From Longimicrobiales bacterium (GTDB lineage: Bacteria > Gemmatimonadota > Gemmatimonadetes > Longimicrobiales > Gaopeijiaceae): DNA of 64,000 nucleotides. This document shows, piece after piece, positions 17,475-20,400 of this stretch. Each line of letters begins with the position of its first letter. Positions within the stretch are counted from its first letter, which is position 1. A program made the position numbers. The stretch lies in the NCBI GenBank assembly GCA_963664435.2, contig CAXXKM010000002.1, forward strand, positions 672,001 to 736,000, in the 5' to 3' direction.

Positions 17475-20400
17475 CTTGAAAGCGCCGCCGAATGGCGGCG
17501 TTTTCCACGTAGCAGGACGGTTTGACGCAGGCAACAACACAGGAGACCGAGGCGAAGATCATGCCGGAAGCGACCGAAATCCGTCGGCCGTGGGCCTTCC
17601 AGAGGCCGGGCCGCGCGCGGGCGCTTCGCTGGTTTCCGTCCGATACGTGGTCGAGCCCTCGCGGGCGGGGAAGCGGGACTCGCCGGTAGCCCCCGGCAGA
17701 CTCCCGACCCAGCCGCCCGCACCGAAAAGGTTCGGGCGTTTTTTTGGCCAGGTAGCTCAGTTGGTAGAGCACGCGACTGAAAATCGCGGTGTCGGCGGTT
17801 CGATTCCGCCCCTGGCCATCTACCGGCTCACCGGCCGGAGGATGGCCGGGTGTGTGCGCGGGGGTCCGTAGCTCAACTGGTAGAGCACCGGTCTCCAAAA
17901 CCGGGGGTTGGGGGTTCGAGTCCCTCCGGGCCTGTACAACTGGGGGGAGAGCCCTCATCGTCTAACGGCTAGGACACCACTCTTTCAAGGTGGCGGTCGG
18001 GGTTCGATTCCCCGTGAGGGCGTTTGGAAGGACGCGCCAAGAGCGCGAAACAGGGGCTGTAGCTCAGTTGGTTAGAGTGCCGGTCTGTCACACCGGAGGC
18101 CGCGGGTTCGAGTCCCGTCAGCCCCGCTTGTTTGTTTCTTGACAAATCGGGTCATCGGCGAAGGATCGGGGCCGTAGCTCAGTTGGGAGAGCGCCTGAAT
18201 GGCATTCAGGAGGTCAGGGGTTCGATTCCCCTCGGCTCCATGGCGCAGTCTGTTCGCGAAGGCGAGCGAGCTCGGATGGCGGAATTGGTAGACGCGCAGG
18301 ATTCAGGATCCTGTGGGGGTTAACCCCGTGAGGGTTCGAGTCCCTCTCCGAGCATGACAGGCCGCGGCGGCAAGCGGCGGCAGCGTTTCGATGGAGGACA
18401 TTTGCCCACGTGCTGGAATTGGTAGACAGGCTGGTTTGAGGGACCAGTGTCGGAAACGGCGTACAGGTTCGAGTCCTGTCGTGGGCACTTGCCGGCCATC
18501 AACGGTCGGCCTTCCTTGCCGAAGGCGGTCGGCAAATCAGCGCCCGTAGCTCAATTGGACAGAGCGCTTGACTACGGATCAAGAGGTTGGGGGTTCGAGT
18601 CCTCCCGGGCGTATTCCCCTCCGGGGGAGGTGAAGGCCAGGACCTGTTTTCCGGCCGAGGGCGCGTAGCTCAGCTGGTTAGAGCGCTACGTTGACATCGT
18701 AGAGGTCAGAGGTTCGAGTCCTCTCGCGCCCATGCGCCGACGCGGCATCCGTGGAGGCGAGCAGGGGCAGGGGCCGTAGCTCAGTTGGGAGAGCGCAGCG
18801 TTCGCAACGCTGAGGTCAGGGGTTCGATTCCCCTCGGCTCCATTCCCGGTTGGCCGGCGAGATTCGCGAGGCGGTCGGTATGGTCGCCACCATAGCTCAG
18901 CTGGTAGAGCACGTCACTCGTAATGACGGGGTCGTCGGTTCGAATCCGACTGGTGGCTTGCCGCTTGCCAGCCGGCCTGGCGAGCGTAAAATTGGGATTG
19001 GATGCCCCGTGGTGTAACTGGCAACACGTCTGACTCTGGATCAGAAGAGTCCTGGTTCGATCCCAGGCGGGGCAATATCGGAGGGGTGGCCGAGTGGCTT
19101 AAGGCGGCGCCCTGCTAAGGCGTTGACCCGAGAGGGTCTCGTGGGTTCGAATCCCACCCCCTCCGCTTGCGGGCGAAGCCCGCGATCAGAGGGGGCGTGA
19201 TTCGAACCCGGGGTTCGAGCCTCCGGTGCTTCGCATCCTCGGCTCACCTTCGGCCCGGCTGGCGCCGGCCTCGGTTGCGAATCCCGCGGGCAGATATCAC
19301 CGGGCACGGTCGCGGGCCGCTATCCGAGTCCAGGATTGAGGTTGCCGGTCGGGCATCTCGTCCTGGGTTCTGAGGCCCCGGCTTCACTTCGTTCCTTGGG
19401 CGGGTTGCTTCTGACCTCGCGTCAGATATGCTCCGCTGCGGTCAAGCCGGCCGTGCTTCTCTCACCGGTTTCCCTGCAGGTTGTAGTGGCCACAATTGTT
19501 CGGACGGGTGGCCGAGTGGCTTAAGGCGCACGATTGGAAATCGTGTGGGCTCACGCCCACGTGGGTTCGAATCCCACCCCGTCCGCTGACGGCGGAGCCG
19601 CCCTCGGACGGGGTGGGCTTCGAACCCAGGGTTGAGCCTTCCGGTGCTTCGCATCCTCGGCTCACCTTCGGCCCGCTGGCGCGGGCCTCGGTTGCGAATC
19701 CCACCCCGGGTAGATACAACGGACACGGTAGGCGGCCGGTCTTCGAACCTAGAGTTGAGGTTGCGGGCGCTTTGCGTCCCCGGCCCGCCTTCGGCACCGC
19801 TGCGCGGCCTCTCGGCTGCGAATCCCACCCCGTCCTTGGTTCGGACGAGCTGGAGGCTTGGGAGGGCGAATCCTAGGCGCTTTCCGCCGGGGGAATCACC
19901 TTGCCGGGTGGGTGGAGCACCTGCCAATTGTTTGCATCGCCGTCTACGGGCGGTACCCACATTTCGGGGCGTGGCTCAGTCCGGTAGAGCGCTGCGTTCG
20001 GGTCGCAGAGGTCCCCGGTTCAAATCCGGGCGCCCCGATTTTGACAGCAGGTGGAGAGGTTTCCGTCCTCAAGCCGATCGGCCCGGTTTCGTCCGGAGGC
20101 GTAGTCTAATTGGTAAGGCACCGCACTCGAAATGCGGCGGGCGAAAGCCCTTGGGGGTTCGAGTCCCCCCGCCTCCGCTTCCATTCCGGTGTCCGTCCCC
20201 GCGCCCTCCCATGACCAGTCGGGGCGACGATCATCACGGTCGCAGCTGGCACATGGGCATCTGATCGCCGGGAGGTCCAGGCCATGCTCGGGCTCGATTT
20301 CATCGCCCATCCCCTGTCAGGCACGCCGTTCGGGACCGCGCTCGAGTTGTGCCTCGTCCTCGCGCTGGTGGCCTGGCTCCTGTCCCTGATCACCCGCGAA

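Follow-up and report, generated by a model that had tools for sequence, protein, structure and literature searches.

The tRNA-linked repeats (TLRs) of E. coli, known since 1978 (Egan and Landy 1978, and Rudd 1999, as cited in PMC8144298), had no assigned function as late as 2021 (PMC8144298). According to the same source, E. coli carries 22 TLRs at ten loci; their hallmark is an 18–19-bp copy of the 3' end of the upstream gene, the class is defined by its position, directly behind the gene in a tRNA or rRNA operon, and by its end repeat, not by sequence, and the TLRs of the rrn operons are transcribed, processed, and bound by Hfq and CsrA (PMC8144298). TLRs have so far been studied as RNAs. 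Two DNA-level systems share parts of their layout. In the phage CTXφ, two inverted sites spaced by about 90 nt fold together, and host enzymes integrate the phage through this fold (PMC4246890). Integrases that target tRNA genes are known to use the T-loop as a crossover subsite (PMC4383910). A literature search on the general plan described below returned, as far as the available parts of these sources go, only the E. coli TLR paper (PMC8144298), an editorial listing, and a preprint in which raised mobilome coverage over tyrT-rttR is interpreted as RNA/DNA hybrids, not circles; PMC3184786 has no TLR content.

Here, we describe a repeated element behind tRNA-Ser genes in a 64,000-nucleotide stretch of a Longimicrobiales genome (the window) and in the genus to which this genome belongs. 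The element is almost certainly of the TLR type, an identity that the preliminary description of the locus missed, and the lineage adds to this long-known kind of element a core oriented antisense to the tRNA.

Results

Anatomy of the Locus

Seventeen tRNA genes are clustered within the window, at positions 17401–20178. The preliminary description reported an element of ~110 nt behind some of them, with a 5' arm antisense to the tRNA 3' end and a 3' arm imitating it. We found that the true unit, linker included, is an ORF-free tandem repeat of 123–131 bp that starts at the 3' end of tRNA-Ser (GCT, GGA, or TGA). It consists, in this order, of a mini-hairpin, an inverted copy of the tRNA end, a two-armed core, and a direct copy that repeats the tRNA from its T-loop onwards.

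The host gene of unit 1, tRNA-Ser(GCT), occupies 19080..19166 on the plus strand and does not encode CCA. It is followed on the same strand by a linker mini-hairpin with a GAA triloop on the tRNA strand (19169..19183; sequence and loop tally) and by a stretch that repeats, in inverted orientation, the T-arm and acceptor 3' strand (19187..19209; repeat search). The core (19210..19275, minus strand) is built of two neighbouring arms that each contain a GA × GNA internal loop and end in a G..A hairpin loop. The unit closes with a direct T-arm copy (19273..19285, plus strand; sequence and repeat search), whose T-loop has one extra G and which is decayed past the T-stem. At ~19290..19350 (plus strand), the decayed remnant of a further, sixth unit is visible (73% identity over 51 nt; 74% over 57 nt, E 0.14); its counterpart in the relative G005 is better kept.

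Units 2 and 3 belong to tRNA-Ser(GGA) (19502..19586, plus strand). Unit 2 comprises a linker mini-hairpin, read from the sequence, with a GGA triloop on the tRNA strand (19590..19600, plus strand), an inverted copy of the tRNA 3' end (19605..19627, plus strand), a core of two arms with G..A motifs on the minus strand (19628..19692), and a direct copy of the tRNA 3' end (19690..19708, plus strand), both end copies being found by repeat search. Unit 3 (19709..19835, plus strand) is a tandem copy at a repeat spacing of 123, older and more diverged (profile score 55 bits vs. 74), and its terminus is a near-complete direct copy of the tRNA 3' end (19814–19835; match over 17 nt). tRNA-Ser(CGA) (20095..20178, plus strand) has a different 3' end and no unit, and serves as an internal control. 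A putative promoter upstream of the tRNA-Gln and Ser genes (18965..18992, plus strand) is a pattern match only, at 10/12 consensus positions; a pattern search of the minus strand gave no promoter-like site, which is weak evidence in a high-GC genome.

The antisense nature of the 5' arm is borne out. At Ser-GCT, positions 19143–19174 pair in inverted orientation with 19178–19209, and at Ser-GGA 19562–19593 pair with 19597–19628, the 32-nt arms being 84% and 88% complementary, respectively. In the genus, the inverted arm is complementary to the tRNA at a mean of 21.3 of 24 positions and is better kept than the direct arm. The direct copy exists as described, but among 38 first copies it is complete, with a 16-nt run that reaches from the T-loop as far as the end of the gene, in only 7, and also in a perfect array of G008; in the remaining first copies it is shortened, mostly to 11–12 nt. 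The 3' end of the unit therefore repeats the end of the tRNA as in TLRs, though in shortened form in most copies. Since these tRNA-Ser genes encode no CCA, the direct copy is shorter than in E. coli.

Distribution and Copy Number

A profile of the core, run against the whole genome, matched at five places (contig positions C2:691201, 691619, and 691742, and C3:358612 and 358739; 55–78 bits) and gave nothing else below E = 2. The reported five copies, and no others, were thus recovered in intact form, to which the decayed sixth has to be added. A covariance model found the same five and two weak matches (26.6 bits) in long duplicated coding regions. These two, in G000, and three more weak model matches, in G022, G104, and G069, were dismissed as chance because they fall within coding DNA or are not near the 3' end of a tRNA. 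Among 56 ARAGORN calls, the best inverted 3'-end matches within 150 nt occur at the three tRNA-Ser genes (23, 20, and 20 of 24; next, 17 and 15), in agreement with the claim that only these genes carry an inverted end copy. Ser-CGA was without a unit at all 14 loci of the genus sample, again as claimed.

Over 19 genus genomes, the covariance model gave 69 matches, 67 of which are at tRNA-Ser loci, directly downstream of the gene as in TLRs, and 2 in coding DNA; thus, the element is not dispersed. Of 44 GCT/GGA/TGA loci, which were chosen through BLAST matches and are therefore biased towards unit carriers, 42 have 1–4 units, within the one to five typical of TLRs. A metagenome scan gave 4 loci, all genus-type and behind tRNA-Ser. 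BLAST confirmed strong matches (E < 1e-22) in 16 of the 18 other genus genomes and returned only 22–30-nt matches from 42 genomes outside the genus (best E 1.6e-4). Two unpublished genomes, G037 and G056, underlie none of the claims made here. No Rfam family, RtT included, covers the element, as noted before, and the E. coli tyrT units reach only E about 0.45 with the covariance model.

The general plan is much more widespread than the sequence. In K-12, the tyr and lys loci contain an inverted tRNA-end copy and inner G..A-loop hairpins besides the direct copy, and an exact 13-nt inverted T-arm copy lies downstream of lysQ; the available part of PMC8144298 does not mention this inverted arm. 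A scan for a T-arm followed by its inverse, with one genome per species, gave at least 122 loci in Gammaproteobacteria, Planctomycetota, Clostridia, Omnitrophota, haloarchaea, and Thermoplasmatota, many of them in related Lachnospiraceae. Among the first 80 of these loci, 50 have a direct copy as well, 23 an inverted copy only, and 7 no tRNA call.

Structure of the Core

An alignment of the 38 first copies, built anew, shows two adjacent arms within a closing stem, with 90.8% of cells paired. Two-sided changes numbered 84, compared with 34.4 in shuffles (0/500) and at most 15 in slid controls; the sequences are kin, and such counts overstate independence. The covariation attributed earlier to the inner hairpins is upheld by this measure, but measures that count pairs or types are not exceptional (96/500 and 33/500). 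The compensatory changes surround elements that do not vary. Four short linkers adjoining the stems are invariant or nearly so (36/36, 35/36, 34/36, and 35/36), while the stem flanking invariant linkers occurs in five Watson–Crick variants, and another core pair alternates between A-T (22) and G-C (14).

The unpaired parts of the core differ in kind between the strands. On the tRNA strand they read T..C (99 loops vs. 0 G..A), whereas the opposite strand presents G..A hairpin loops and, in each arm, one GA × GNA internal loop. All 38 copies have a triloop as their first hairpin loop, which reads GNA on the antisense strand in 33. With DNA folding parameters, the antisense strand was the better folder in 42 of 52 copies; separate antisense vs. 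sense z-scores were −5.4 vs. −4.6 and −2.1 vs. −0.2. With RNA parameters it was better in 30 of 52, and energy alone picks no strand. When mini-hairpins contain a sheared G-A pair, their DNA form greatly exceeds the RNA form in stability (for one octamer, 76.5 vs. 39 °C), and they are found at recognition sites in single-stranded DNA (PMC13037366).

Gain, Loss, and Decay of Units

Comparison of relatives revealed tandem duplication as well as precise loss. G008 has three identical 128-bp units behind Ser-TGA. Compared with G018, the Ser-GGA locus of G012 is short of exactly one unit while its flanks match, which makes it a precise empty site. No unit is present at any of Ser-GCT, GGA, and TGA in G006, whose genome is 100% complete, or at Ser-TGA in G009. 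Distal copies show polar decay, the first copy outscoring the second in 22 of 23 arrays, and units of G007, G002, and G010 have suffered microhomology deletions. Core similarity is raised between the adjacent GCT and GGA loci (0.881 vs. 0.808), but comparisons involving the distant TGA locus show no such rise (0.83/0.81 vs. 0.80/0.81); arms cluster by locus in 31 of 38 cases. Cores being alike only between neighbouring loci and arms being inherited by locus, there is no sign of current traffic between loci, and the activity of the element within the genus looks local.

These events might reflect neutral debris: units would come and go through slippage between direct repeats, stems would stay paired through hairpin-templated repair, and no protein would read the shape. 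The microhomology deletions, the precise loss between direct repeats, the decayed distal copies, and the failure of the searches described below (for a Y1 gene in G000 and among 115 broad-sample ORFs) to find an enzyme gene would all fit. Templated repair should, however, remove internal loops, but the GA/GNA loops are invariant beside changing stems; the same module also stands behind different tRNAs with re-tailored arms (see below), and the plan recurs in bacteria and archaea. We therefore consider neutral origin improbable.

Orientation of the Core

G..A mini-loops were counted identically in all groups. In the genus, 69 are antisense to the tRNA and 1 is sense (22 units), and the arm motif is antisense in 22 of 22 units. 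The corresponding numbers are 11 sense and 0 antisense in E. coli (3 units), and 75 sense and 13 antisense in the broad sample (54 units from all 122 loci listed by the scan). That the motifs of most TLRs lie on the transcribed strand is what one would expect of an RNA function, and this counts against a DNA reading. In the linker, outside the arms, the GAA/GGA triloops of the genus are mostly kept on the tRNA strand, as in sister genera.

Sister genera were surveyed in 20 regions picked for closely spaced tRNA-end copies. Their units often stand at the same Ser genes, and many are of the sense type, mini-loops being found on both strands (16 sense vs. 10 antisense in 13 units). Units of G073, G071, G100, and G174 are of the antisense type and have the second arm in common with the genus; they stand behind Ser-TGA, Ser-CGA, Ser-GGA, and tRNA-Lys, and their direct ends correspond to the tRNA of their own locus. 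In G071 and G100, the same core module is found behind tRNA-Lys with Lys-type arms, the inverted Lys end of G071 being full length. Statements in the preliminary description that the element is confined to serine tRNAs and has nothing of note outside the genus thus hold for BLAST similarity only, because sister genera carry related units, including ones behind tRNA-Lys and Ser-CGA.

The core of the genus is likely, though not proven, to be a mirror-orientation form of the sister-genus core. A profile of 18 sense-type sister-genus cores scored the reverse complement of 18 of 38 genus cores above the 95th percentile of shuffles, compared with 1 of 38 in forward orientation, and both core junctions align in reverse with units of G159 and G089. 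Pairwise and covariance scores weigh against this: no more than 3 of 23 units reached an opposite-strand z of 3 or higher, for two sense-type units the same strand gave the better score (z 3.2 and 2.5), and the covariance model gave only E 0.015–0.5 on sense-type loci.

The placement of the motifs bears on whether the unit acts as RNA. It could be a co-transcribed trailer whose inverted arm sequesters the tRNA-Ser 3' end, with arm-with-arm refolding or end processing controlling maturation or freeing a small RNA, similar to RrA/B/F or RttR. The alternative pairings proposed in the preliminary description do exist, and in RNA the tRNA-with-arm hairpin is predicted, from secondary structure only and without modifications or tertiary fold, to win over the acceptor stem at all 38 of 38 loci. 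The inverted arm changes with the single base that distinguishes the tRNAs (C at 11 of 13 GGA loci and at 0 of 30 GCT/TGA loci), units are retained in nearly all loci of our carrier-biased sample, and the rrn TLRs of E. coli are processed RNAs with protein partners (PMC8144298). Contigs from two RNA runs cover units of relatives, one of 867 nt joining the tRNA and units, although these contigs have no strand or ends, could be of DNA origin, and come without a silent-stretch control; RNA runs with small word shares and bins free of RNA cover were left aside. On the other hand, the invariant motifs appear as pyrimidine loops on the transcribed strand, and as G..A only on the other, off the precursor; both core orientations exist within one family; the direct arm is seldom complete; and units are absent from all three genes of G006, and from the GGA and TGA loci of G012 and G009, respectively. 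The base tracking may reflect a single event per locus, arms being inherited by locus. An RNA switch is thus a rival and not the best reading, and we regard it as rather doubtful.

Search for a Linked Enzyme or Carrier

No enzyme linked to the units was recovered. Pfam searches with 115 of the 136 ORFs beside broad-sample loci (the 21 left out being mostly from redundant Lachnospiraceae loci) gave no linked enzyme, and the G000 genome has no Y1 transposase gene. GIY-YIG proteins are represented by one long-frame gene per genome and six extra matches, none with a tRNA or unit within about 1.4 kb. Tyrosine recombinases gave 41 matches in the genome, which makes the family uninformative for an enzyme link. 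For this reason, and because no distal tRNA-end copy bounds them in G000, integrases 5–8 kb behind Ser-TGA in G000 and G011 were set aside as candidates. A retroviral primer-binding-site reading was likewise rejected: the inverted arm is best kept at the T-arm, CCA is not copied, and duplications often overrun the tRNA end into the flank.

A viral scan with the element motif gave a single match, a chance tRNA-Gln (L054). The T-arm/inverted T-arm pattern gave 6 viral loci, of which 4 are a phage tRNA-Gly beside a nuclease-like ORF and 2 are contig ends with host-type units; there was no autonomous element at these 6 loci. At the two contig ends, L050 and L053, a TLR-type unit directly adjoins a terminal fragment of a tRNA 3' end; on this reading of contig ends, phages would insert ahead of units. 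This weakens the case for a host guard, in which a hairpin or cruciform with the tRNA end would mask attB or serve as a dead decoy against tRNA-targeting islands and phages. Such a role would account for the long, conserved complementarity to the tRNA end, the damaged T-loop of the direct copy, and a genome rich in tyrosine recombinases, but it leaves the conserved inner arms unexplained. We think it highly improbable.

Discussion

The core motifs are invariant on the strand that lies outside the tRNA precursor, while the stems around them co-change. The explanation that fits this combination best is a protein reading a folded single strand; we give roughly even chances to a DNA-level mechanism in which the core acts as a shape read on single-stranded DNA. 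The unit is a gene-less element of 123–131 bp lodged at the T-loop of tRNA-Ser genes, the gene 3' end reappearing at its far end. On the DNA-level reading, the antisense strand, when transiently single-stranded, would form a branched hairpin, closed by a stem that imitates the T-arm duplex. A protein with its gene at another place would recognise the GA × GNA loops and GNA mini-hairpins and promote re-insertion or duplication at the T-loop, much as the folded CTXφ attP(+) is joined to dif. If only well-shaped units were renewed beside the tRNA, shape would be kept without a host function, and a unit might rarely be transferred to another tRNA and then take on that tRNA's ends. The order of tRNA end, cargo-free linker, inverted site, loop region, and direct site is what one would expect to remain of such an insertion.

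A broader proposal can be made only tentatively, and we would lean against it: TLRs may be domain-spanning, gene-less mobile DNA that targets tRNA T-arms as a folded single strand, takes both arms from the host gene, and has its GA × GNA arms read by a host or trans enzyme, the mirror-fixed core of this genus being a natural experiment for DNA as the active form. With a conserved core on the non-transcribed strand, the question whether TLRs act as RNA or as DNA can be approached directly, and the two arms with GA × GNA loops, the GNA triloops, and the T-arm-mimic stem provide a defined motif for binding assays. If the DNA mechanism is true, sequences would have a further, new way of moving at tRNA genes, which are where islands and phages mainly enter.

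The closest known systems are the E. coli TLRs (tyrT/tyrV-RttR, the lys operon, and rrA/rrB/rrF). Both kinds stand behind a tRNA, end in a copy of its 3' end, occur once to several times per locus, and contain an inverted 3'/T-arm copy and inner G..A-loop hairpins. Here, in contrast, the core motifs are antisense, the inverted arm is long (about 21 of 24 nt), and the direct copy is often decayed, begins earlier in the T-loop, and is without CCA; there is no significant sequence match between the two.

Similar to the fold proposed here, integron attC sites and the T-shaped terminal hairpins of parvoviruses are strand-specific folded single-stranded DNAs with extrahelical bases and inner arms that may take either of two mirror orientations inside a closing stem. 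Unlike these, the present element has no linked integron integrase or Rep gene. Its core orientation is fixed within the genus, so it does not flip frequently.

REP/REPIN-RAYT systems and the Ssn GIY-YIG nucleases with their NTS/SRM (PMC11893778) are similar in that non-coding hairpin repeats are read as single-stranded DNA by a protein encoded elsewhere. Their repeats are dispersed in many copies and flank the enzyme gene, whereas ours are confined to tRNA-Ser ends; we found neither dispersed copies with a Y1 gene nor a small GIY-YIG gene flanked by the repeat, and the available main text of the Ssn paper does not contain the word "tRNA" (PMC11893778). With tRNA-targeting islands (Islander, PMC4383910), the element shares a tRNA gene with a displaced 3' fragment, a break point in the T-loop region, and tandem arrays. 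It differs from them in its size, about 125 bp versus 2–200 kb, in the extra inverted copy and the conserved folded core, and in having no integrase, the islands being defined by a tyrosine integrase between tRNA and fragment and a length above 2 kb. CTXφ attP(+)/XerCD (IMEX, PMC4246890) has dif as its target and belongs to a phage, whereas here the target is the tRNA T-arm, phage genes are absent, and no Xer boxes were seen, though none were specifically tested for; in both cases, two inverted copies of the target form a duplex mimic of it, no recombinase of its own is carried, and copies stand in tandem.

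Genomic setting of the tRNA-linked repeats

We found that the window contains a cluster of 17 tRNA genes, all on one strand (17401-20178), with a phosphodiesterase-family gene and a DUF1295 gene as its neighbors on either side. Throughout the family, the arrangement of this cluster is conserved, its gene order in part. Between the units behind tRNA-Ser(GCT) and the tRNA-Ser(GGA) gene lies another hairpin-rich stretch, with T..C loops (19375-19450), whose counterparts are also present in the related genomes G007, G010, G012, and G014. This stretch may be another decayed repeat.

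In the tRNA-Ser(TGA) array of a related genome (locus L031 in G008), a ~175-bp insert bounded by inverted ends interrupts the fourth tRNA-linked repeat (TLR) unit. Since a BLAST search revealed 25 matches to related sequence throughout G000, the genome that holds the window, the insert is a separate dispersed repeat of a MITE-like kind. In another relative (locus L016 in G003), an assembly gap with unrelated sequence breaks the tRNA-Ser(TGA) gene, while the 3' end of the gene and the unit are intact.

The whole G000 genome yielded 41 tyrosine-recombinase matches, many of them in alike frames of 400-470 aa, and some adjoin tRNA genes. Long duplicated coding islands are found on contig C3 (571721-576390 and 1158001-1164000) and also on contig C1.

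Units behind other RNA genes and in viral contigs

Unit arrays of the same polarity, i.e., strand of the core G..A loops, are present at loci L235 and L236 (both G071) and L237 (G100), where tRNA-Lys(TTT) and tRNA-Ser(CGA) are the hosts; in L235, every unit additionally carries a terminator-like hairpin, which lies after the tRNA end and ahead of the inverted arm. In the broad sample, Lachnospiraceae loci including L061, L069, L080, and L095 contain minimal units hosted by tRNA-Lys, in which the direct copy follows 8-12 nt after the inverted arm and inner hairpins are absent. Planctomycete units linked to tmRNA (L097, L105, and L130) have a core in common with the tRNA-Ser-linked units of L073 and L106.

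Two viral contigs (L050:3001-3090 and L053:3001-3140) end in a tRNA 3' fragment, directly behind which stand a TLR-type unit and genes that resemble host genes. In phage contigs L048, L049, L051, and L052, at ~3000, tRNA-Gly is followed by an inverted T-arm-like sequence and, close behind it, by an ORF whose translation looks like that of a putative GIY-YIG homing endonuclease.
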